Assembly (NCBI GenBank): GCA_902761535.1
Contig: CACWKS010000002.1
Location: forward strand, 142,418-206,417
DNA: 64,000 bases
Direction of reading: 5' to 3'
Origin: an uncultured Pseudomonadota bacterium
GTDB lineage: Bacteria; Pseudomonadota; Alphaproteobacteria; RF32; CAG-239
A program made the translations under genes and the position numbers. Below are positions 1 to 37,475 of this stretch, piece after piece. Position 1 is the stretch's first letter; every line of letters starts with the position of its first letter. Under the pieces are notes generated by a model. It saw nothing but the letters and a program-made list of their open reading frames with translations, searched no databases and was not told the origin of the DNA.

Positions 1-636
1 GGCAAACTCATCCGGTAATTGATTTATACTTGGTTTAAGCCAGTAATCCCTGTACAATATTGCTTGAGCTCTTTGTGGCGTTATGTTTATAATATCTTCC
101 TTGGGATAATATTTTGAGCTAATACCATAGTTGGTAATTCCGCCTCTATCGTTAGGATGATTAGCAAACCCTCCTTCGTTAAATTTGGTGCGTTGCATAG
201 CATGCTGAAAACGAGTATCACCAAGCATATTATCAATAAACTCTTTAGAGAAATCATTGCCATAAAGAGAATAATCAATCATTTTGCTTGTTTGATTCAC
301 ATCATTTACTATATTTGGCAAAGTATTTTGTGCATACTGCATAGGTTGATTTAAGGTATTTTGCATATTCTCAATATTAGCTTCAATATTGAAGTTGCCA
401 AAACCGTAGTTGTTGGCAGAATTACCCCAAAAGTTTGTGCTATATTGCGGATAGTTTGAAGTTATGCCTTGAGCATTATAATTTTGCATCAGTTGTTTTT
501 CGCGTTGTTGCCGAGTGGCTTGATAGGCTAACTCATCACGCAACGAAAATCCGTTATGATTCACCCCATAACTGTCAATACCGTTATCACCGTTTTGATA
601 GCCTAACGGTGAGATATAATTTCCATACATTTGCAT
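1..636 (-). CDS. Partial gene running off the window edge. Q/N-rich N-terminus followed by a glycoside hydrolase family 108-like (predicted lysozyme / peptidoglycan hydrolase) domain.
   Basis: I translated the minus strand by hand from the ATG at 636 (preceded by aaaggaaaaataaa). The frame stays open to position 1. It reads ...FNEGGFANHPNDRGGITNYGISSKYYPKEDIINITPQRAQAILYRDYWLKP..., which matches the GH108 EGGY.NDP.D.GG.T.YGI signature. The ORF track omits it because it is truncated at the window edge. Confidence 0.6.
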   Translation of the reverse strand, partial: MQMYGNYISPLGYQNGDNGIDSYGVNHNGFSLRDELAYQATRQQREKQLMQNYNAQGITSNYPQYSTNFWGNSANNYGFGNFNIEANIENMQNTLNQPMQYAQNTLPNIVNDVNQTSKMIDYSLYGNDFSKEFIDNMLGDTRFQHAMQRTKFNEGGFANHPNDRGGITNYGISSKYYPKEDIINITPQRAQAILYRDYWLKPSINQLPDEFA

Positions 637-933
637 TTTATTTTTCCTTTCAGTTTACTTATAAAAAAAGAGCCTTGTTTTCAACAAAGCTCTTGGTTGA
701 TAAAAAAATATGGCGATAAAGCAGGCACAAAAAAATCCCGCCATTTTCATGACAGGACTTTTACCCACTCATCCACCATACCTATTTTTCTAACACCTAC
801 CGTCGCTAATGTCAATATACCATCTTGAAATATCCCCAAAAAGTTGAATATATATAACAATTAATTATTTTTTTGTTGTGTAATTAAATTTCATATTGTT
901 AAAGCATTATCTCGTTTTAGTTGTGCTATTTTT

Positions 934-9284: not shown

Positions 9285-10208
9285 TTACTCCTCTGGTTGT
9301 TTAATCATTTCATCTGCAGTCGTCACTTTTGCCTCCGGTGCAATCTTCTTTACCAAGCCTGACAACACATTCCCAAAACCGACTTCCGCAAATTCATTTA
9401 CATTGTTGTTAATAATATATTTTATACTCTCCTGCCACTTAACTGTATTGGTAATTTGTTCTTTAAGCAACTGTTTTATTTCATTTATTCCATCATAGGG
9501 GCGGGCGGTCATGTTGCTGATAACTTTGATTTGCGGCACACTGATTTTGGCTTGATTGATAATATCTTCCATCTTATCTGCCGCACTTTGCATCAAAGGC
9601 GAGTGAAAAGCTCCAGATACATTTAAGGCAATAGCTTTGCGAGCTCCTACTTTCAATGCTTCTTCTCCGGCATGAGCAATTTCTTCTTTCCCACCCGATA
9701 TCACAATTTGAGCCGGAGCATTGGAATTGCCTACATAACAGCCGTTCAAAGCCGCAATTTGATTAATCGCAGCATAATCCAAACCGATTATTGCCATCAT
9801 TCCGCCTTGCTGTTGCTCACAAGCCTCCATCATATATTTTCCGCGCAGTTGCAACAATTTTGCCACATCTTCCAAGTCAATTGCTTCAGCTGCACATAAT
9901 GCCGAGTATTCGCCCAAAGAATGTCCGGCCGCAAATTTTATGTTTTGCATGTCAAGCAGCCCCGTATCCTTAAACACTTCAAAATAAGCCATCGATACTG
10001 CCATAATTGCCGGTTGAGCGTTTTCGGTCAGATTGAGTTTTTCGGCATCACCTTCAAACATCAGCTTTGATAAGTTATAATGCAAAGCTTCGTCAACTCG
10101 CTCAAAAACATCTTGGGCAATCGCAAAATTTTCATATAAACTTTTGCCCATTCCGATCTTTTGGGAGCCTTGCCCCGGAAAAATCAATGCTTGTGATTTT
10201 ATTTCCAT
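9285..10208 (-). CDS. fabD: Malonyl-CoA:ACP transacylase
   Basis: GHSLGEYSAL active-site motif and FabD-typical length. Confidence 0.9.
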   Translation of the reverse strand: MEIKSQALIFPGQGSQKIGMGKSLYENFAIAQDVFERVDEALHYNLSKLMFEGDAEKLNLTENAQPAIMAVSMAYFEVFKDTGLLDMQNIKFAAGHSLGEYSALCAAEAIDLEDVAKLLQLRGKYMMEACEQQQGGMMAIIGLDYAAINQIAALNGCYVGNSNAPAQIVISGGKEEIAHAGEEALKVGARKAIALNVSGAFHSPLMQSAADKMEDIINQAKISVPQIKVISNMTARPYDGINEIKQLLKEQITNTVKWQESIKYIINNNVNEFAEVGFGNVLSGLVKKIAPEAKVTTADEMIKQPEE

Positions 10209-27450: not shown

Positions 27451-30400
27451 ATGAATAAAAATTTTTGGTTACTGTTGTTTTTTATTTTATGTTGCCCGGT
27501 ATTGACTTATGCCGGCATAAAAACGATTAATGATACGCCTTATGCCAGTGGCAATTCTGCGACGGTTTCATCCGGATCTTCCGATGATAATTCGTTATCT
27601 GCAAATTCCCCCAAGAGCCAAAATCTTCTTAATTCTTCCAATAACAGCAATGATTCGCAGTCTGATTCCCAAGCTGATGGGGACAGTGACGGAGATGGCG
27701 ATGGAAACGAAACTTATCCTGCCTGTTATTTTTCCGGTTGTGAAAATTATTCTTCTTGCCAATATTATGATATAAATAGTTTGTCTGTGGCAAGCAATTA
27801 TTGCAGTTGTGCCGCCAACAATACGAATATTGCCTTATGTGATTCGCAATTACATTATCACAGCACGGTAAATTACAGCGGCTATGCACGTGGTTTAGGG
27901 GTGAGTGCCGACAGTTCACTGACTTTAGTTTCTGGACAAAACAATTATTATTACCTTTCGAATGTAGATTATTTTTGTCCGGTTAAGTTAAATCTTGCAA
28001 CTTTGGGATATACTCTCAATCCTCTTTCCCAAACTTATTATACTGCAGCCCGTAGTCTGGATTGTGATTATGATTCATCAACCGGAGTAAATTTATTTAG
28101 TTACACAGGTATTAACTGCATTCGCCCCGGTTATGGCATCCGAGATGAACAAATAGTCAATCTTTGTATTTATGGGTGTGAAAACAATCCAAACCCTTAT
28201 GATGATATGTTAAATTATGAGAATCGCCCCAAAGGATTGCAGTTTTGTGACGCATTACGCAATCAACGAGATACATCATCTGCACGTAGTTTTTATTCAA
28301 TGGATAGTTATGATGATTTGCCCGCTGCCGCCTCAACCAAATATTATATGTATCGTCCCAATGTAGCCGCGGCTCCTGATGATTTTGATTATCAACTTGC
28401 TGAATGTGCTATCCGGTGCGGGGTGTCCGGAAATGCTGATATAACTCCTATTTGCCAAGGGTGGTATTATTTGCAAAATTGCAGTTCTTTCACTGCAGCG
28501 GAAGAAGCGGCCGGTTATTATATTTCTCCGCTATACAATTCCTATGCTGAAGCTGTTGCCGCGGCTTCACAAATTTCCTCATTTGACATTTGTTACAATT
28601 TTGATTACATATATCGCAAATCAACCTTTATTCGTTGCGGAATCAAACATAGTGCCGACGCAACCAACGGTGTTTATTCTGAAACCGAATGTCGTACCAA
28701 CAACGGCGTTTGTTCTGATACAGAAGGCGACAATTATACTTGCGGTGGCGAAACCTATTGCAAACGCTGTGTTTGTCAAAGCGGATTGTATACATTAGCC
28801 GAATGGTGTGCCGCCAATAATATCACCGAAGATTGCGATACCGAACATTATAAGGGGCAGGGGAACGGATGTAACTATGACGACACCAGCAGCGACTTGA
28901 GCGGTGTTAAATATGCCTCTTGGATATTAGATCCTGATAATCCCGATAATGTTTGTCAGCCGGAAGGGCAATATGTGGCATTAGAGGACATTTCCGCAGC
29001 GACTGTTGACGAGTTACACAACACTTATGGTCCTTCTGCCCAAATAAGCAAATGTATATCCGACAACACTATGAAATGGCAGATTACCTGCAGCAGCGAC
29101 TATGCATATATTTGCGGCATTGTTGATACTCCGAGCAATTGGTGCACCCATGGACATGATTCTTCCACCACCATGCGCAGTGAGGCGGCTTCTTCATCTC
29201 CTCACAAATATTGCACCAGCGGAACGCTCAGCGGCATTTGCGGAGAATCGATTATAATCTCAAACGGCTCGGGAAGCAGTTTAATCCCTGCCTCTTATGA
29301 TTTGAGAATTTACGAAACGGAATCGCCAGAGCAGTGTTATAACAGGTATGGACGTGCGGCCTCGGTTCAGCCCTGTATTTCTATTGATAATTACGGCTCC
29401 AAATACAATTGCTACTATGATTTGCGAGAATACATTTATTCCACAACCAATGATAACGGAGCGGTAGTCTGTCCGGTTCGCCATGATCTTACCGGAAATT
29501 ATATAGTTCTCAATGGGCAGAAGCGATGGGCGGAATGCAATTGTATGGGGCTTTACGATTACACCATTTACACATGTTCCGGCAACGCAACCGTTATGGG
29601 CAAGGCTTGCACTCAGAATTTATCAAATGTAAATTCATCAAATACGTTAATCAACAAATGGAAAGATAAAGTTCCATATGATCAGGTCAACAATCGCATT
29701 TTGGTAAATTCGGTTGACTTATATCCGTATTGCCAATGCGATGAACGCTTCAAATACACTTGTGATGATAATGAAAGAACGTCACCGCTACCTGACAGTG
29801 CTTATTGTCAAGTTGATGGACGCTATTATTATGAATCTTGTCAGTGTACCAAAGATAGCTTGCCGGATCATTGGTCGGATAATTATTTCAATTGCACTTC
29901 CGGCGCACAACCGACCGGTATCTGGAAAGAAGACGGATGCGGCGGCAAGATGTACCAGTGTTCCGATACCATAGTATGCACGTCCGAATATACTCAAACT
30001 TGCAACGGCACCGGACAAATTGGTGTCAGCGGTTATGGTTGCCAAGATGACGAGGGTGCGTATGTTAAATGGAAAAAGTGTCAGTGCGATACTGCCGGCG
30101 GATGGCATACTTGTTTAGAGGATAATCAAAGCGGTGTAGGTGATCCCTGCATTTCCGGAAATGTTAATTATTATCAGTCTTGCTCATGTCCGTCAGGTTG
30201 GGCAACTTGCGATGACGAGCATATACCGGATTCTTCGGTGCAATCATGTCAAACTGACGATGGGATAATTGTCTATGCCTCTTGCGGCTGTAATAGTAAT
30301 TACAGCGAGTGTAGCGGCAACGGACAGGTTGGAGACACCTCATCGGGCATGTGTACATTAAGCGGCGGCACTACTGTTTATGAAAATTGCATCTGCAAGA

Positions 30401-33102
30401 GTGAGTATGACAAAACCTGTCAAGCTGATTCCTCCAATCACATCCGCGGTGATGACAGCGACGTATGCACCATATCCGGTTCTTCCGGTGAAACCGAAAA
30501 TTATTACAAGAGTTGCCGGTGTGAAGATGGCTATATTTTGACCTGCAGCGCTTCAGATCATTTGGTACCGAAAGACTCGGCCGATTATTGCCAAACTGCC
30601 TCCGGTGAAACCATGTATTATAACGAGTGCGAATGTGCATCCGGATATGATAAAACTTGTGAAGGTCAAACTCCGGCGGATATTAATGATTATTGTTCGC
30701 TTAACGGTGTAAGTTATTATACGGCTTGCACCGGATGTGATGCAGCCAGCGGTTGGATTATCTGCAGCGGAGCCAATCAAATTGGTGACGGACAGACTTG
30801 CACCTTCGACGAAACCACATATTACCAGTCTTGTATATGTCCTTCCGGTTGGACGGTTTGTGACGAAGACCATCAGCCTGATTTATCGGCACAGTCTTGC
30901 CAAACCAGCAGCGGAACCACCTATTACGAAAGTTGCATTTGCAACAGCAGTTATACCGAGTGCGGCGGCAATGGTCAGGTTGGCGACACCTCATCGGGCA
31001 TGTGTGTTATTGATGATGACACCACGGTTTATGAAAGATGTATCTGCAACAGCGAGTATAATCTGACCTGTCAAGCTGATTCCGGCAATCATATCCACGG
31101 CGATGCCGATGACGTATGCTCCATATCCGGTTCTTCCGGTGAACCCGAAAATTATTACAAAACTTGCCAATGCGACGATGGCTATACTTTGAGTTGCAGT
31201 GCTTCAGAACACTTAATTCCGAAAGATGCGGCAGATTATTGTCAAATTGTTATGGATGGAGCAATCCTCTACAACGAATGTCAGTGTGCTTCCGGCTACA
31301 CTTTGACTTGCAGTGACACGGACCATTTAGCTCCGAAAGACGATAGTGATTATTGCCAAACCGCTTCAGGCGAGACCAAGTATTACAACGAGTGTGAATG
31401 TGCTTCCGGATATGACAAAACCTGTTCGGCTGCTGACGGCTTATCTCCGGTTGATAGCAGTGACTATTGCTCGCTTAACGACGTAAGTTATTACACGGCT
31501 TGTACTTGTGATACTTCCGAGGGGTGGGTTATTTGCGACAATAATCAAATCGGCAATGGACCTGTTTGCACCTCCGGCGGCACCGATTATTATCAGTCTT
31601 GCTCTTGTCCGGAAGGATGGGTTACTTGTAACGGCGACCACCAAAGCGGCAACGAACCGGCTTGTATTTCCGGCGGCACCAGCTATTATCAGTCTTGCTC
31701 TTGTCCGGCGGGGTGGGTTGCCTGCGGAACTAACCAAATCGGAAACGGAACGCCTTGCGTATTGGGCGAAACCGAGTATTACCAGTCTTGCTCTTGTCCT
31801 TCCGACTGGACAATCTGTACCGATAACAAGGTCGGCGATCCGTCGTTAGGTTCTTGCACCATTGGCGGCACCACTGTTTATGAAAATTGTATTTGCCCAT
31901 CTCACTGGATTACTTGCGAAACTAACCAAAACGGGGTAGGAGAGGTTTGCACCTCCGGAGGAATTGATTATTATTCGTCTTGTATATGCCCCATTGATTG
32001 GACGGCATGTTCCGGCAATCACATCATTGGTGATCCGTCATCCGGTGCTTGTGCCATCAACGGCTCCACTGTTTATGAAAGTTGTGCTTGCGATTCCGGC
32101 TATACCGAAAACTGCTTAAATCAAGCTCCGGTTGATGAAAATGATTATTGCTCGCTCAACGGTGTAAGTTATTATACCGCTTGCACCGATTGTGGTGATG
32201 TAGTTAAGAGGTACGATTGCGGAGAGCGCGACGCAGGTCCGATTAACTGTATTCAAAGTTATTGGGATGGAACTATACAGACAACTTACGCTTCTTGCGA
32301 TTGCTCAATACCGGAGATATATGATGGTCGTAGAAACACTGAGGCAATTATCAGAGAGACTCCCCGTGGTGAATTTGCAGCTGATGTCGCTTATCAATAT
32401 CATCCTTCAAATCTTTCTCTATTGGATAATAATTTCGGTATTGGCCGTTGGTATCTTCCTGCTTATGGAGAAATGTATCAAATGGTTAATGTTATAGATA
32501 CCGTTAATTCAGGAATTTCAGCCGTATCCGGCGAAGTGATGTATCCAGATATATCGTATTGGAGCTCATCTGAAGTCGATATGTGGTATAGTATCAAGGT
32601 TTCTAAACAAAATGTAACATATCATTATGTTGATGAACAAGAAAAAAGAATACCATGCATATTTCGCATAGTTACTCTCTTAGAAAACAAACTGCCGGCA
32701 ACTTCTTTATCTAATATTGCCGGTGCCGCCGTCGGCGATGTGGTCTATAGTGACCTGACTTATGACAGCTATACCAATCCTCATTCTGACAAAACTCCGG
32801 TCGGAGTGGTCTATTGGGTTTCCTCTGACAAATCTCGTGTGCGTATAGTTTCTCCTAATCAGCCCAAAATGCTGCCCTGGGGTTGGGGTGGATTTTATAC
32901 TTACGTGAAGCTGGAGGATGTACCCACTGAAGTAGGTGAATGGGAAATGGAAAGTCAAATGTGTTGGGACGATAATCAAAATGAATATGAGTGTTATGAG
33001 GTTGATGGTGGTATAGATATCACAGGTATTAAGAATTTAGGATCGAACATGTTTAACGACGGTATAGGTTGTACTTCTACGGAAATTCTTGACAATCTTT
33101 AG
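27451..33102 (+). CDS. Giant secreted cysteine-rich tandem-repeat protein (1883 aa) with more than 30 EGF-like 4-Cys modules and a distinct C-terminal domain
   Basis: Signal peptide MNKNFWLLLFFILCCPVLTYA. A S/N/D-rich linker including DGDSDGDGDG. About 1100 aa of repeats of the form C-x6-11-YY-x2-C-x-C-x2-G-[WY]-x2-3-C. A Cys-poor C-terminal domain of about 300 aa. Confidence 0.85.
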   Translation: MNKNFWLLLFFILCCPVLTYAGIKTINDTPYASGNSATVSSGSSDDNSLSANSPKSQNLLNSSNNSNDSQSDSQADGDSDGDGDGNETYPACYFSGCENYSSCQYYDINSLSVASNYCSCAANNTNIALCDSQLHYHSTVNYSGYARGLGVSADSSLTLVSGQNNYYYLSNVDYFCPVKLNLATLGYTLNPLSQTYYTAARSLDCDYDSSTGVNLFSYTGINCIRPGYGIRDEQIVNLCIYGCENNPNPYDDMLNYENRPKGLQFCDALRNQRDTSSARSFYSMDSYDDLPAAASTKYYMYRPNVAAAPDDFDYQLAECAIRCGVSGNADITPICQGWYYLQNCSSFTAAEEAAGYYISPLYNSYAEAVAAASQISSFDICYNFDYIYRKSTFIRCGIKHSADATNGVYSETECRTNNGVCSDTEGDNYTCGGETYCKRCVCQSGLYTLAEWCAANNITEDCDTEHYKGQGNGCNYDDTSSDLSGVKYASWILDPDNPDNVCQPEGQYVALEDISAATVDELHNTYGPSAQISKCISDNTMKWQITCSSDYAYICGIVDTPSNWCTHGHDSSTTMRSEAASSSPHKYCTSGTLSGICGESIIISNGSGSSLIPASYDLRIYETESPEQCYNRYGRAASVQPCISIDNYGSKYNCYYDLREYIYSTTNDNGAVVCPVRHDLTGNYIVLNGQKRWAECNCMGLYDYTIYTCSGNATVMGKACTQNLSNVNSSNTLINKWKDKVPYDQVNNRILVNSVDLYPYCQCDERFKYTCDDNERTSPLPDSAYCQVDGRYYYESCQCTKDSLPDHWSDNYFNCTSGAQPTGIWKEDGCGGKMYQCSDTIVCTSEYTQTCNGTGQIGVSGYGCQDDEGAYVKWKKCQCDTAGGWHTCLEDNQSGVGDPCISGNVNYYQSCSCPSGWATCDDEHIPDSSVQSCQTDDGIIVYASCGCNSNYSECSGNGQVGDTSSGMCTLSGGTTVYENCICKSEYDKTCQADSSNHIRGDDSDVCTISGSSGETENYYKSCRCEDGYILTCSASDHLVPKDSADYCQTASGETMYYNECECASGYDKTCEGQTPADINDYCSLNGVSYYTACTGCDAASGWIICSGANQIGDGQTCTFDETTYYQSCICPSGWTVCDEDHQPDLSAQSCQTSSGTTYYESCICNSSYTECGGNGQVGDTSSGMCVIDDDTTVYERCICNSEYNLTCQADSGNHIHGDADDVCSISGSSGEPENYYKTCQCDDGYTLSCSASEHLIPKDAADYCQIVMDGAILYNECQCASGYTLTCSDTDHLAPKDDSDYCQTASGETKYYNECECASGYDKTCSAADGLSPVDSSDYCSLNDVSYYTACTCDTSEGWVICDNNQIGNGPVCTSGGTDYYQSCSCPEGWVTCNGDHQSGNEPACISGGTSYYQSCSCPAGWVACGTNQIGNGTPCVLGETEYYQSCSCPSDWTICTDNKVGDPSLGSCTIGGTTVYENCICPSHWITCETNQNGVGEVCTSGGIDYYSSCICPIDWTACSGNHIIGDPSSGACAINGSTVYESCACDSGYTENCLNQAPVDENDYCSLNGVSYYTACTDCGDVVKRYDCGERDAGPINCIQSYWDGTIQTTYASCDCSIPEIYDGRRNTEAIIRETPRGEFAADVAYQYHPSNLSLLDNNFGIGRWYLPAYGEMYQMVNVIDTVNSGISAVSGEVMYPDISYWSSSEVDMWYSIKVSKQNVTYHYVDEQEKRIPCIFRIVTLLENKLPATSLSNIAGAAVGDVVYSDLTYDSYTNPHSDKTPVGVVYWVSSDKSRVRIVSPNQPKMLPWGWGGFYTYVKLEDVPTEVGEWEMESQMCWDDNQNEYECYEVDGGIDITGIKNLGSNMFNDGIGCTSTEILDNL

Positions 33103-33129
33103 TTAATGCCCTCTGCCCAAATTATTAAC

Positions 33130-34410
33130 CTGTCATGCCTGAGCAACTGAAAGTTGCGAATAAGGCATCTTCGAAAAAAAAACTGTCATGCCTCAATCGG
33201 CGAAAACAAAACGACCAAACCTGTCATGCCTCAATCGGCGCCAGTCCGATTGATAAGGCATCTTCGAATTTTTTAAAAATTCGTAGCCCCCTTATTCGCC
33301 TCATTTTATTCGGCTCAGGGGTGACATTTAAAAAAACTGTCATGCCTGAGCGGTTGCAAACCGCGAATAAGGCATCTTCGAAAAAAAAACTGTCATGCCT
33401 CAATCGGCGAAAACAAAACAAGTAAGGGGATAAGAGGGGATAAAATACTTCCTTTTTTGCTTTATTAAAAAAAATAATTCGAAGATGCCTTACTCCACTC
33501 ACTTCGTTCGTTTCGGGCATGACATTTTATATTTAAACTGTCATGCCTGAGCGGTTGCAAACCGCGAATAAGGCATCTTCGAATTTTCTCTTGTAAAAAC
33601 CTATTTTATGAAATATAATCAACTTTATGAAAGAAATGTATGTTTATATAATGACCAATAAAAATAATACCACATTATATATCGGTGTTACGTCTGATTT
33701 AGTCCGTCGGGTTTATGAACATAAAAACGGCATTTTTAAGGGCTTTACTTCTGAATATAATTTAAATAAGTTGGTGTACTATGAAATAATTGATGGTGAA
33801 ACTCAAGCCATTGAACGAGAAAAACAACTTAAAAAATTTTATAAAGATTATAAGAAACGTCTTATTACAGAAAAGAATCCTTCATGGCAAGACTTATATT
33901 CTGAAATTTGCAGTGAGTAGTAAAAATAATTCGAAGATGCCTAACTCCGAAATATAACTTGTCACCCCTGAGCAACTGAAAGTTGCGAATAAGGGGTCTA
34001 CGAATTTGCCCTTCCCCTTGCAAGCAAGGGGATAAGAGGGGATAAAATACTTCCTTATTTTTACTTTATTAAAAAATAATTCGAAGATGCCTAACTCCGT
34101 TCGCTAACGCTCACTACGGGCATGACATTAATATTTTTTCTCAGGGTTTGGGATTTATGAGTAAAGCGGAAAAAGCAAATATTAAATCGGCTGGCAGTAT
34201 TTCTTTATGCGGCTTACGTCGCGCGCTTTAGTGTGTAAGTTAAGCCGCAGCCTTATGCCGTTTTAATATTTGCCCGCTTTGCGAATATCCCAATGACTTT
34301 TGGTTACTTTTTGTTGCCAAAAAGTAACGCAAATATAAATATAAAAATAAAAATAATTCGAAGATGCCTTACTCCGTTCGCTCCGCTCTCTTAAGGGCAT
34401 GACATTAATA
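33130..34410. repeat. Dense cluster of at least 12 copies, in both orientations, of a 45-60-bp hairpin element family. The core is tgtcATGCC-[internal hairpin]-aataaGGCATcttcgaa, with variants.
   Basis: Copies sit at about 33130-33175, 33184-33214 (partial), 33221-33268, 33278-33328 (reverse variant), 33337-33382, 33389-33420 (partial), 33479-33526 (reverse), 33538-33584, 33925-33950 (reverse, partial), 33957-34003 (CCCC/GGGG variant), 34062-34133 (reverse) and 34340-34405 (reverse). Auxiliary motif aaggggataagaggggataaaatacttcc occurs twice. Confidence 0.85.
33627..33920 (+). CDS. GIY-YIG (URI-domain) nuclease family protein, COG2827-type small endonuclease
   Basis: YVYIMTNKNNTTLYIGVTSDLVRRVYEHKNG matches the GIY-x10-YIG signature, including the conserved R and the E of EHK. 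The likely start is the MYVYIM Met at about 33636. Confidence 0.75.
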   Translation: MKEMYVYIMTNKNNTTLYIGVTSDLVRRVYEHKNGIFKGFTSEYNLNKLVYYEIIDGETQAIEREKQLKKFYKDYKKRLITEKNPSWQDLYSEICSE

Positions 34411-34444
34411 TTTAACCTGTCCTTCCCAAAAACAAAAATAAAAC

Positions 34445-35365
34445 TTATCTGATAAATTCTTTAGGTCTGGTAAAACTCGGCATCTGTTCTTTATCATCAT
34501 TTTTTGCCGGAGCCGATATTGAAATATTACCGTTAAATACCGTTTCTGCCTGTTGTTTGCCGATTGCAATATAAATATCACTCATACCTGATGCCGGATA
34601 ATAATATTTATCCAAAGCCGGAATTTTTTCATTTTTTCCCAGTATCAAATAACCGCCTTGTGGTTGTCTTTCACTCAAACGTTTTAAAATTTCATCTTGA
34701 TGTTCTGTATCAAAATATTTTAATAAATTGCGGCAAAATACCACTTCAAACTTATTGGTTCCGGCAATGTCATCTAAAACATTATAATGACGGAAATCCA
34801 CTTTATGTCTTATTATATCTTTCGCCAGCCATTGCTCTCGGTTGATTTCAAAATATTCCAATATGTCATCAATACTTAAACCGGTCTGAATTTCAAAATT
34901 ATTATACAAGCCGCGTTGTGATTTATTGATCGCCACCACTGATATATCCGAACCTGAAATATTTATCTTCCAGTTTTGAAAATTCTTTTTGCATTTATCA
35001 AATATAATTGCAATACTGTAAGTCTCCTGTCCGCTTGAACATCCGACACTCCACACGTTTATTTCTTTGCGTGAACGACATTTGTCTTTTAGTTTTGGCA
35101 AAACTTTATTTTTAAAATCAGCAAAAACTTCAGCGTCACGAAAAAACATTGTATCCGAAAAAGCTATTGTTTCCACCACTTGATTTATCAGAGTGCGATT
35201 ACCTGTCCTCAGCTCGTTTATCAAATCTTCTTCCGAACCGTAATTTTTACCGCGGATAAAATTAGCAATTTTTTTCTCTATAACAAAATAATTTTTTTCA
35301 TCAAACTGCCATCCGGCATTTTCTTTCATCAGCTTCAATAAAAAATTAAAATCTTTTTTTAACAT
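34445..35365 (-). CDS. CheR-type protein-glutamate O-methyltransferase-like protein
   Basis: CheR N-terminal helical domain plus a SAM-binding methyltransferase fold (VWSVGCSSGQETYSIAI). Confidence 0.7.
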   Translation of the reverse strand: MLKKDFNFLLKLMKENAGWQFDEKNYFVIEKKIANFIRGKNYGSEEDLINELRTGNRTLINQVVETIAFSDTMFFRDAEVFADFKNKVLPKLKDKCRSRKEINVWSVGCSSGQETYSIAIIFDKCKKNFQNWKINISGSDISVVAINKSQRGLYNNFEIQTGLSIDDILEYFEINREQWLAKDIIRHKVDFRHYNVLDDIAGTNKFEVVFCRNLLKYFDTEHQDEILKRLSERQPQGGYLILGKNEKIPALDKYYYPASGMSDIYIAIGKQQAETVFNGNISISAPAKNDDKEQMPSFTRPKEFIR

Positions 35366-35742
35366 CAGATAATTCCTTCATTTTTTAATAATGCCAATTT
35401 TAATTTTGAAGCAATAATATCTTCATCAAACGGCCTGATAATAAAATCATCTGCTCCTCCATCCAAAGCCTTTTGTAAAATATCGGTATCTTTAACATAA
35501 GCACAAAACATAAATATCGGTTGTTTGACTTTTTTATCGTTGCGAATTGTATAAAGCACATCAAGACCGTCAACTATCGGCAACTCCCAATCGCAAATAA
35601 TCAAATCCGGTTGAATTTTCATATAGCTCTTTAACAGTTCTTCACCGTTTTCTGCTTCAATAGCGTTGTAGCCTAAATTCTTTACTATTTTTCCTATCAG
35701 CATACGCATAATTTTTGAATCGTCAGCTATAATGCAATTCAT
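35365..35742 (-). CDS. Single-domain response regulator (CheY-like receiver)
   Basis: Receiver domain with a DD acidic pocket, the phospho-acceptor Asp in LIICDWELP and the conserved Lys. Confidence 0.75.
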   Translation of the reverse strand: MNCIIADDSKIMRMLIGKIVKNLGYNAIEAENGEELLKSYMKIQPDLIICDWELPIVDGLDVLYTIRNDKKVKQPIFMFCAYVKDTDILQKALDGGADDFIIRPFDEDIIASKLKLALLKNEGII

Positions 35743-35743
35743 C

Positions 35744-36346
35744 TCAATTCTCCGTAATCTTCAAATAATAATTTTCTTCATCTTTCGCCAGAATAACCCT
35801 TTGGATGCCGTATTTTTCCAACAAAAGTGCCAGCGGTGCTGTGTTAGCCGTAACTGCCGTAACATCACCATCCATCATTTTTTGCAAATTTTGCCATTTA
35901 TCAGCTGATATTTTATTCTCACAATTTATTTGTACACGCAAAACATCACTTAAATTTTGCACTTTAACGGTTCCGCCTCTCACTAACAAATCAGCCATAA
36001 CCATAATCGCAACCATGGCTGTCTTAATTTGCTTAATACTTTCCCAATCCGCCTGTAACTTAATCGGATAATCGGAATTTCCCAAACTCGCTAAATAATT
36101 ATCACATGTGGTTTTAACCAAATTCAAATCACTGAGAGCGTTATTATCAAGCCCGAAAGCCATTCTGAAAAATTTCATTCTTGCAGTCAAATTAAAAGAA
36201 CTGGTTCGTAATATGCTTTTTATATCTTCCAAAAAATCCAAATCTCCTTCTTCCAACAGTTCGGAGGCGTTAGCTACAGCACCGATGTTTCCTATAATAT
36301 CATGACTTATACGAGTGCATATCAATTCAGAAACCAAATTTTTCAT
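35744..36346 (-). CDS. chpT: Histidine phosphotransferase ChpT-like protein
   Basis: The ORF track gives 35744..36415; the likely start is MKNLVSELI at 36346. The N-terminus LVSELICTRISHDIIGNIGAVANASELLEE matches the ChpT/DUF2328 signature around the phospho-His. Confidence 0.65.
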   Translation of the reverse strand: MKNLVSELICTRISHDIIGNIGAVANASELLEEGDLDFLEDIKSILRTSSFNLTARMKFFRMAFGLDNNALSDLNLVKTTCDNYLASLGNSDYPIKLQADWESIKQIKTAMVAIMVMADLLVRGGTVKVQNLSDVLRVQINCENKISADKWQNLQKMMDGDVTAVTANTAPLALLLEKYGIQRVILAKDEENYYLKITEN

Positions 36347-36356
36347 ACTTTCATCC

Positions 36357-37475
36357 TTAAAAATTATAAAAATCACTACTGACAAAACGCCGGTCTTCTT
36401 GAACCATCTTGTCATAATCTAATTCAATAAACATCGGATCTACCAATTCTAATTTTCCGGTAGTAGCTGTCAGATAAGGTTTATTACCGCCTAATCCCCA
36501 GGTAACCGTATTCTTATCATCGGGAACTCCGTACTTTCTGTTTATTTTTTTCCAAAAATCATATATTTTCAGATTGCGCAGATACGTAGCTTTGGGTGAA
36601 TTTCCGTTTATCGCTACAATATTCGAAGTATAATAAATTTTATGAACCCTGTTACCGGTAAAATTACTGGTAAAATAAACTTCAATTTCTTCTTTGGTTT
36701 CAAACTTGGCGAATTTTATATATTCTACATATTCAAAACCTTCCTTTTTAGCTTTCTTTAATACGCAAGCCTGCAACCTTTCATATCCGACAATTCCCGA
36801 GTTGCGACAAATTTCTTCGTTTCTCCATTTAATAAAATTCGGAACTTGATACCGAGCATTAATTTTTTTGAAACCATGCGTTAACAAAACATCTTCCGCT
36901 TGAGATACATTCATTCTCAACATAACTCCTGCAATATCAAAAATTGCCGCATTAGAGCGATTGTTTTTGGCATTTTTGCGAGAAATATTCATCATATTAT
37001 CAATATCGGCATCTTCTTCGGAAACTTCTGCTTCTTTATTATCAGATGATACTTTAGGGCTGTCATTGTCACCGCTCAACAATTTGCTGGGTGACAACTC
37101 GCTTATTTTTTCAATCCAGGTTCCGTCCAGAATGCTTTCGTTTTTATTTTTAGGATCACTTTGTAATCTCTCGGTAAGACTGTCTCCCTGAGGCGTGGTT
37201 GGTGATTTTTGCAGATCATCGCTAGCAATTTGATCTAAGCTTTTAATTGCAGGCCGCTCGGGAATAAACAGAGTTTCATTATCCTGAGTTGTTTCTTCGG
37301 CAGAAGGATTATCTATGCCGGAGGAAGATGGCACCTCATCTTTTGTTTCATTTTTGGGGTTATCCCAATCGGATATTTCATAATCGATTGCATCATCGTA
37401 AGCCTCACCGTCCTCACTGGCAAAAGCCGGTGAGACTAATAATAATGCTGTAATTAATATTTGTACCGTTTTCAT
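36357..37475 (-). CDS. Secreted hypothetical protein with an acidic low-complexity N-terminal region
   Basis: Signal peptide MKTVQILITALLLVSPAFA. The first 180 aa are D/E/S-rich, followed by a globular C-terminal domain with no recognised motif. Confidence 0.5.
   Translation of the reverse strand: MKTVQILITALLLVSPAFASEDGEAYDDAIDYEISDWDNPKNETKDEVPSSSGIDNPSAEETTQDNETLFIPERPAIKSLDQIASDDLQKSPTTPQGDSLTERLQSDPKNKNESILDGTWIEKISELSPSKLLSGDNDSPKVSSDNKEAEVSEEDADIDNMMNISRKNAKNNRSNAAIFDIAGVMLRMNVSQAEDVLLTHGFKKINARYQVPNFIKWRNEEICRNSGIVGYERLQACVLKKAKKEGFEYVEYIKFAKFETKEEIEVYFTSNFTGNRVHKIYYTSNIVAINGNSPKATYLRNLKIYDFWKKINRKYGVPDDKNTVTWGLGGNKPYLTATTGKLELVDPMFIELDYDKMVQEDRRFVSSDFYNF

Follow-up and report, generated by a model that had tools for sequence, protein, structure and literature searches.

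A probable Ssn nuclease system with loop-expanded hairpin repeats in an uncultured alphaproteobacterium

Introduction

Site-specific nucleases of the Ssn family act on single-stranded DNA, and the hairpins that they target, known as NTS or SRM, typically flank their genes (Chenal et al., Nat Commun 2025, PMC11893778). The founding member, SsnA, is in Neisseria meningitidis a 94-aa single-domain GIY-YIG protein (CDD family cd10448), which binds the NTS hairpin CGTCATTCCCGCGMAVGCGGGAATCYRG as single-stranded DNA only and cuts that strand alone, a few nucleotides upstream of the hairpin (PMC11893778). Cleavage is affected by the three bases before the palindrome and binding by the C after it, while the identity of the loop is dispensable: cleavage persists in vitro when the loop is removed, or extended with complementary or non-complementary DNA (PMC11893778). 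The family has been shown to cut single-stranded DNA at specific sites and to modulate natural transformation. Chenal et al. admit homologues of Neisseria SsnA that reach E < 1e-10; nearby SRMs accompany 71% of Ssn homologues, and in 42% they lie to either side of the gene (PMC11893778). Here we examine a 64-kb window (the whole stretch of DNA that was analysed) from an uncultured gut or rumen alphaproteobacterium, in which a GIY-YIG gene, referred to below as ssn, lies within an array of hairpin repeats at positions 33130-34410.

The repeats themselves have a longer history. Di Nocera et al. (BMC Genomics 2013, PMC3733652) catalogued a superfamily of REPs tagged with CGTC or TGTC, whose stems start with A-T pairs, and which occur mostly in Alphaproteobacteria but also include Neisseria dRS3 and Rickettsia RPE-4/RPE-6; no dedicated enzyme was found for them in that study. 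The SRM/NTS repeats correspond to these CGTC-tagged REPs. Chenal et al. in turn compare the NTS-ssnA-NTS arrangement with insertion sequences (IS200/IS605) and with REP/RAYT (PMC11893778).

Results and discussion

A probable Ssn-family nuclease gene within a hairpin repeat array

Repeat and motif searches identified a single element family, with nine full and three truncated copies in both orientations, surrounding one GIY-YIG open reading frame (ORF; Table 1). The locus thus has the sequence that a preceding sequence-only reading described, and the estimate given there of at least 12 copies in both orientations is borne out. Very probably, as judged by homology to Neisseria SsnA and NTS, the ORF encodes a site-specific single-stranded-DNA nuclease of the Ssn family, and the repeats are its cognate SRMs, expanded in the loop and acting in the same manner. 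The sequence-only reading had taken such a pairing of enzyme and palindromes to be undescribed; it is instead the Ssn/NTS(SRM) system of Chenal et al. (PMC11893778), the repeats having been catalogued in 2013 (PMC3733652). The reasoning was sound, and re-derived from raw sequence alone an association that was recognised only in 2025. What is new at this locus is the host clade, together with a loop-expanded form of the repeat that the published pattern misses.

Membership of the protein in the Ssn family is supported by several comparisons. The Pfam GIY-YIG domain spans residues 4-74 of its 97 residues, with no other domain present. Pairwise BLASTP against Neisseria gonorrhoeae SsnA gave 51% identity over 90 residues without gaps (E 2e-33), and a tblastn search of a 7.3-Gb plasmid collection returned an N. 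gonorrhoeae match at E 4e-17, within the E < 1e-10 limit set for the family. As the matched ORF (locus L057, NZ_CP119140.1) is 94 aa long, possesses Y6, Y17 and E64, and lies amid NTS copies, it represents the SsnA orthologue. The L057 record, 2.17 Mb in length, is labelled an N. gonorrhoeae plasmid, but is evidently a chromosome with almost no annotation. In an alignment of nine sequences, residues Y7, Y18, R28, H32, E65 and N84 of the window protein are invariant, and Y7, Y18 and E65 correspond to the Y6, Y17 and E64 mutated in the published SsnA work.

A sequence search of the PDB yielded no Ssn structure and only a weak match to a UPF0213 protein (BH0048, 1zg2, E 0.004). Proteins of this UPF0213/YhbQ type are likewise small stand-alone GIY-YIG domains of about 100 aa, but their sequence similarity to the window protein is weak, and we know of no repeat association for them. 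The earlier label of a COG2827-type GIY-YIG nuclease is thus imprecise, the protein being close to SsnA. Searches of the protein against NCBIfam and PADLOC returned sub-threshold homing-endonuclease matches only, and were uninformative. The ORF had also been called the only one among the repeats; two further mechanical ORFs of 96 and 98 aa cross them, neither with a Pfam match, which leaves the GIY-YIG ORF as the sole credible gene.

Ends, stem and interior of the repeat

Each element consists of TGTCA, a 6-bp outer stem, 24-28 variable nucleotides, the stem complement and CTTCGAA, or in general form (C/T)GTCA, Y-NNN-T, 24-28 nt, A-N'N'N'-R-T and CT(T/A)CGAA. The 5' tag reads TGTCAT or TGTCAC in all nine full copies, fitting the published HGTCWY, and the 3' end reads ATCTTC or GTCTAC in every copy, fitting the published RNCYNB with its C right after the palindrome. 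All 30 aligned diverse copies have GTCA at their 5' end and TCT.CGA at their 3' end. The conserved positions therefore coincide with those found critical in the SsnA work, namely the three nucleotides before the palindrome and the C after it.

Pairing and compensatory change, set against shuffled controls, show that the outer stem is real. In the 30-sequence alignment, 97.8% of cells were paired and compensatory changes occurred in four of the six pairs; none of 500 shuffles reached the observed values, and no slid register came close. Compensated outer stems comprise ATGCC/GGCAT, ACCCC/GGGGT, ATCGC/GCGAT and ATTCT/AGAAT. Among 79 distinct copies that were taken from the window and related genomes and defined by their ends alone, 70 were complementary at all three free outer-stem positions, with variants including GCC/GGC, CCC/GGG, CGC/GCG, TCT/AGA and GGC/GCC. 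A covariance model of the element, which the sequence-only reading had proposed, was built from 30 diverse related copies; it recovered the nine full copies (E 4.5e-11 to 2.2e-6) and placed no copy elsewhere in the 64-kb window, where the next match had an E of 1.7. Similarly, allowing up to two mismatches, AAGGCATCTTCGAA occurs eight times in the array and once elsewhere in the window, and none of 100 shuffles (whole-window mean 0.59) reached the observed nine. An Rfam search of the whole window identified two tRNAs only, and no known RNA family over the repeats.

The interior of the element is heterogeneous. A clear nested inner hairpin is present in five full copies (33131, 33222, 33338, 33539 and 33960), four of which were folded (DNA-fold z -2.7 to -3.5), the sequence of 33539 being identical to that of 33338. 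Three minus-strand copies (33478, 34080 and 34357) have a GA-rich, GCGAACGGAGT-like interior with no stable fold, and 33280 folds weakly; z for these four lies at about 0 to +1.5 (33280 itself -0.38). The variable perfect inner hairpin that had been ascribed to every copy is therefore found in the five copies listed, but fits only about half of the set. Since both kinds of interior, nested hairpin and non-folding, match the loop tolerance reported for NTS (PMC11893778), it appears that both kinds of loop extension occur naturally. Loop-expanded SRMs were also found beside the homologue P0010, one of them with an insert of ~85 nt, and canonical short SRMs beside ssn homologues in loci L008, L079 and L081.

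Within the GA-rich interiors, the motif GCGAACGRAGT, or GAGCGNAGCGAAC, recurs across genomes and outer stems (window 33478-33524, 34080-34127 and 34357-34404; L012, L013, L028, L075 and L078). Its conservation is in sequence, not in structure.

The resemblance to SsnA/NTS is extensive: a protein of about 94 aa that consists of one GIY-YIG domain and keeps the catalytic Y, Y and E; a gene amid hairpins with an unpaired (C/T)GTC tag, a stem beginning with A-T and a C after the stem; and repeats in both orientations, clustered at the gene and dispersed elsewhere in related genomes. The interior of the window repeats, at 24-28 nt, nonetheless differs from the 4-5-nt NTS loop, and their conserved 3' tail is longer (CTTCGAATT versus CYRG). 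Several observations weigh against assigning the repeats to a system that works as in Neisseria. The stem is 6 bp long, as opposed to 8-9 bp in NTS, and the copies nearest the gene face it with their tails, whereas in L057 it is the CGTC tags that face the gene. Moreover, the four copies lacking a stable inner hairpin, although putative substrates, fold no better than shuffled sequence. Finally, the full SRM pattern HGTCWYN(0-2)YYVSBRHN(0-5)WNVSBRGN(0-2)RNCYNB has no match in the window, compared with nine in a 3.3-kb Neisseria control and one next to the second ssn gene in L008. The pattern misses the window copies because of their 24-28-nt interior; given that the terminal sub-motifs fit and that the control behaved as expected, we rejected its lack of matches as evidence against SRM membership.

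Comparison with the CGTC-tagged REPs leads to a similar picture. Shared features include the unpaired CGTC/TGTC tag at one end, predominance in Alphaproteobacteria, the occurrence of head-to-head dimers and clusters, and the start of the stem, in which the TGTC of the window elements is followed by an A-T and then a T-A (or C-G) pair. The published REPs differ in having an 8-9-bp stem, a 4-5-nt loop and a CCA tail, as opposed to 6 bp, 24-28 nt and CTTCGAA.

Association of gene and repeats in related genomes

An exact-pattern scan of one genome per species, in a set from which the window's own genome is absent, placed the element on many contigs of metagenome-assembled genomes (MAGs) from rumen and gut Alphaproteobacteria, and a looser scan extended the set at these loci by copies whose stems carry other compensations, frequently in clusters of alternating orientation. 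Most of the element-bearing loci from the scan lack a GIY-YIG gene; the repeats are thus dispersed, as is expected of an enzyme in few copies with many sites. The same dispersed picture emerged from a scan of JGI metagenomes, in which about half of the 20 matches are chance occurrences in high-GC contigs. Within the 64-kb window, all copies lie at ssn.

To these dispersed copies may be added those around further ssn genes. Eight distinct homologues with 58-77% identity were compared (two adjacent genes in L008, the first of P0003 type, L017, P0056, P0010, P0058, P0065 and P0029), giving, with the window gene, nine genes in at least seven genomic contexts. All nine lie among (C/T/G)GTCA-tagged hairpins, usually with a plus-orientation copy ending 25-45 nt before the ATG and minus-orientation copies after the stop codon. 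In the window, repeats likewise flank ssn on both sides, one copy ending 43 nt before the ATG and another starting 9 nt past the stop codon, and more copies follow to either side. The neighbours of the homologues are unrelated, and include a giant surface-like protein, rho, type IV pilin genes, accA and pyrG. Even the closest homologue (76-77% identical) lies in a locus that has no neighbours in common with the window locus except a weakly similar giant protein, so the two do not represent one conserved orthologous locus. Element density is ~27x higher within 800 nt of the gene (73 in 26.9 kb) than elsewhere in the same loci (24 in 238.7 kb), bearing in mind that the loci are not all independent. 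The sequence-only reading had proposed a search around other GIY-YIG genes, holding that repeats scattered without enrichment near such genes would make the adjacency coincidental; since the copies, though dispersed, are so much denser near the gene, and since tagged hairpins flank all eight homologues, its view of enzyme and palindromes as a cognate pair is upheld.

This recurrence in nine genes also argues against a role of the repeats at the level of RNA or chromosome structure, in which the hairpins would serve as 3'-end stabilisers of mRNA, terminators or sites for nucleoid proteins, like E. coli REPs, and the nuclease gene would be incidental. The array does lie between convergent genes (those of the giant protein on the plus strand and of CheR on the minus strand), three terminator-like matches overlap copies, and many tagged REPs are located downstream of genes (Di Nocera et al., PMC3733652). 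However, the terminator-like matches are not significantly above shuffles (3 versus 1.3 +/- 1.3), copies are present in both orientations and also upstream of ssn, and a simple RNA hairpin would leave the conserved, oriented, unpaired tag and tail unexplained. We consider such a role improbable.

A second alternative takes the repeats for classical REP/RAYT or IS200/IS605-type elements that depend on a HUH/Y1 transposase gene located elsewhere, and the GIY-YIG gene for a chance neighbour. It draws on a general resemblance only: short tagged palindromes in alternating orientation, forming BIME-like clusters. The flanked gene encodes a GIY-YIG protein at every locus examined, the tag is (C/T)GTC and not GTAG, and in the survey of Di Nocera et al. 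CGTC repeats flanked no tyrosine transposase (PMC3733652); we give this explanation next to no weight, no search aimed at a Y1 transposase having been made among the other ORFs of the window. The logic of the REP/REPIN-RAYT systems is nevertheless the same, in that a few-copy enzyme gene is flanked by inverted, oriented, tagged hairpins recognised as single-stranded DNA, with many dispersed copies and BIME-like clusters. The differences lie in the GTAG tag and HUH/Y1 gene, as opposed to the (C/T)GTC tag and GIY-YIG gene found here, and in the covalent intermediate of the HUH tyrosine, as opposed to hydrolysis by the unrelated GIY-YIG fold; mobilisation by Ssn would be hypothetical. An integron attC array or a CRISPR was also entertained, and ruled out by the absence of cassettes or spacers and by the presence of copies in both orientations.

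In locus L008, two ssn paralogues are arranged tail to tail at 21-308 (+) and 536-820 (-), and their products share 77% and 61% identity, respectively, with the window protein. Loop-expanded ATGCC-type repeats come after the first, and the second lies amid TGTCATTCTCGGGCTTGACCCGAGAATC repeats of the short canonical form and numerous GCCCGAGAATGACA half-sites. This arrangement suggests that repeat types are specific to the paralogue.

Array polymorphism among strains

The same locus was recovered in three independent metagenome assemblies (L001-L003), in which the ssn gene and its immediate flanks are 94.6-99% identical to the window, showing that it is not an assembly artefact. That repeats were collapsed or chimerically joined in the MAG, or met the gene by coincidence, is brought to mind by the short contigs of L001-L003 (569-721 bp), which break inside the array, and by a run of N inside the array of L039; with the agreement of the three assemblies, and the same architecture in other species, we regard this as scarcely credible. 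L039 is a scaffolded metagenome contig whose upstream SRM array is interrupted by the run of N (9476-9573), and array lengths taken from such scaffolds are accordingly uncertain.

Arrays vary between strains that have 100% identical Ssn. In L003 a 201-nt unit flanked by a pair of identical copies is missing, in L002 a 131-nt insert seen in the window is absent, and the arrays of P0003 vary in length between samples. Within the window, an 86-nt block at 33127-33212 matches 33334-33419, and an 85-nt block at 33419-33503 matches 34021-34105; part of the array thus arose by block duplication and not by separate insertions. Recombination between copies explains the differences in arrays between strains.

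The insert at 34151-34281 has terminal inverted repeats of ~17-24 nt (AGCAAATATTAAATCGGC / GCCGTTTTAATATTTGCC) with TTTG on both sides, is absent from the otherwise collinear L002, is single-copy in the window, and was found in none of the fetched loci. From its sequence, it looks like a transposable element of the MITE type.

The hydrolysis of DNA by the GIY-YIG superfamily proceeds without a covalent intermediate. This, together with the polymorphisms above, bears on whether SRM-ssn-SRM is or was a mobile unit in which Ssn drives the copying of SRMs, similar to REPIN/RAYT, a selfish replicator that could coexist with an Ssn/SRM system acting as in Neisseria. The idea was raised by Chenal et al. 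(PMC11893778), and is in keeping with homologues of 58-77% identity in unrelated contexts, each with flanking inverted hairpins, with the variation of arrays around an unchanged Ssn, and with the dispersal of SRMs at many loci without ssn. On the other hand, hydrolysis offers no obvious rejoining step, and the two flanking copies would be cleavable on opposite strands, unlike the ends of IS200/IS605. Loss of the 201-nt unit between identical copies and block duplication account for the polymorphisms, and neither a clean single new SRM insertion nor an empty-site/filled-site pair for a single SRM was found among the strains and loci compared. For these reasons a transposon-like activity stays a minority hypothesis, which we judge unlikely. 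The sequence-only reading had suggested a selfish or regulatory system; a transposon-like role is shown neither here nor in the literature, where the family is credited with cleavage of single-stranded DNA and modulation of transformation.

Proposed mechanism and wider relevance

For an Ssn/SRM system of this kind, binding, cleavage position, strand specificity and biological role can be proposed from the literature, by homology to Neisseria SsnA/NTS. The region would become single-stranded, for instance during DNA uptake, replication, repair or conjugation, whereupon the strand reading TGTCA...CTTCGAA could form the 6-bp outer stem, either ATGCCT/AGGCAT or one of its compensated variants. Ssn would then bind the base of the stem, reading the unpaired GTC just 5' of it and the C just 3', and would hydrolyse the tagged strand a few nucleotides 5' of the tag, leaving the complementary strand and duplex DNA uncut. 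The 24-28 nt between the stem arms would represent a tolerated loop extension, with or without a hairpin of its own. A likely effect would be the fragmentation of SRM-bearing single-stranded DNA, limiting or shaping recombination across SRM-flanked regions. The arrays themselves gain and lose length through recombination between copies.

A bolder proposal is that these are natural loop-expanded Ssn targets, of which the enzyme reads only the tag, the 6-bp stem base and the extended CTTCGAA tail, with nested hairpins or GA-rich GCGAACGRAGT sequence as interchangeable loop modules, and that the tails-inward SRM-ssn-SRM is an active self-propagating element in gut Alphaproteobacteria, Ssn driving the spread of the repeats besides restricting single-stranded DNA. 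We consider this combination doubtful at best; were it true, published SRM censuses would substantially undercount the system.

The system indicates that gut and rumen Alphaproteobacteria carry probable Ssn modules whose expanded-loop targets, with their longer conserved tail, fall outside the published SRM pattern. The window elements look like natural counterparts of the loop-extended substrates engineered in vitro by Chenal et al. (PMC11893778), and should therefore be useful as test cases for Ssn recognition and toward a wider catalogue of enzymes and sites for single-stranded-DNA tools. In addition, the polymorphism of the array and its giant surface-type neighbour, with type IV pilin genes as neighbours in relatives, echo the Neisseria repeats around genes for host interaction.

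Genomic neighbourhood and minor features

The ORF map places the array in the only long non-coding stretch of an otherwise densely coding window. Coordinates of the gene, the repeats and other small features are given in Table 1.

Table 1. Coordinates of the ssn gene, repeat copies (designated SRM as the probable family) and other features of the array in the 64-kb window.
Feature	Position	Strand	Evidence or remark
Mosaic intergenic region	33103..34444		Holds ssn gene, all SRM copies and other small repeats; all covariance-model hits inside
Full SRM copy, inner hairpin GCAACT/AGTTGC	33131..33175	+	DNA-fold z -2.66; covariance-model E 3.7e-09
Truncated copy, 5' half of TCAATCGG type	33184..33202	+	Repeat family D3
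Full SRM copy, inner hairpin TCAATCGG/CCGATTGA	33222..33268	+	z -3.51; E 1.8e-10
Full SRM copy, outer-stem variant ACCCC/GGGGG, weak interior	33280..33326	-	z -0.38; E 2.2e-06
Full SRM copy, inner hairpin GCGGTT/AACCGC	33338..33382	+	z -2.93; E 1.1e-09
Truncated copy, 5' half, within duplicated 86-nt block	33391..33409	+	Repeat families D1, D3
Full SRM copy, non-folding GA-rich interior	33478..33524	-	z +0.23; E 1.4e-07
Full SRM copy directly upstream of ssn, CTTCGAA tail toward gene, 43 nt before ATG	33539..33583	+	Best covariance-model match, E 4.5e-11
Promoter-like site TTGTAA-17 nt-TATAAT	33591..33619	+	Consensus scan, 10/12 matches; pattern match only
ssn gene, 97-aa single-domain GIY-YIG nuclease, Ssn family (SsnA-like)	33627..33920	+	Pfam PF01541 E 1e-17; 51% identity to SsnA
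Truncated copy, 3' half, 9 nt past ssn stop codon, tail toward gene	33930..33949	-	Sequence reading and motif search
Full SRM copy, compensated outer stem ACCCC/GGGGT	33960..34004	+	z -3.10; E 1.5e-09
Second hairpin family CCTTCCCCTTGCAAGCAAGGGGATAAGAGGGG	34010..34041	+	Repeat family D4; partial copy 33419-33440
Full SRM copy, non-folding GA-rich interior	34080..34127	-	z -0.05; E 5.4e-09
Full SRM copy, non-folding GA-rich interior, last before CheR gene	34357..34404	-	z +1.47; E 1.7e-06

The promoter-like site is situated between the upstream repeat and the ssn start codon, and a TATAAT-like box occupies the equivalent place in L078, L079 and L080. With respect to the second hairpin family CCTTCCCCTTGCAAGCAAGGGGATAAGAGGGG, the corresponding copy in strain L001 (L001 1-45) starts with TGTC, and the family may therefore be another, degenerate type of SRM.

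To the left, directly upstream of ssn, the array is bordered by the gene for a giant Cys-rich repeat protein of 1883 aa with a signal peptide (27451-33102, plus strand). Giant proteins with Lcl_C, of 1348-1776 aa and strain-variable length, also precede the closest homologue, and are weakly similar to that of the window (L039 4259-9343; L040 5655-9701; L042 4169-9499). In this lineage the giant gene lies between SRM clusters (L039 3420-4035 and 9419-10640), which recalls the NTS clusters around surface-protein genes of Neisseria. The surroundings of the homologues P0010 and P0058 (L078, L079) comprise several type IV pilin genes of Bundlin/PilS type and a gene for a T2SSE ATPase, separated by dense SRM arrays; this proximity may reflect a link to pili, DNA uptake or pilin variation. 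To the right of the array, on the minus strand (34445-36415), are located genes for a CheR methyltransferase (34445-35365), a single-domain response regulator and a ChpT-like histidine phosphotransferase (HPTransfase, marginal Pfam score).

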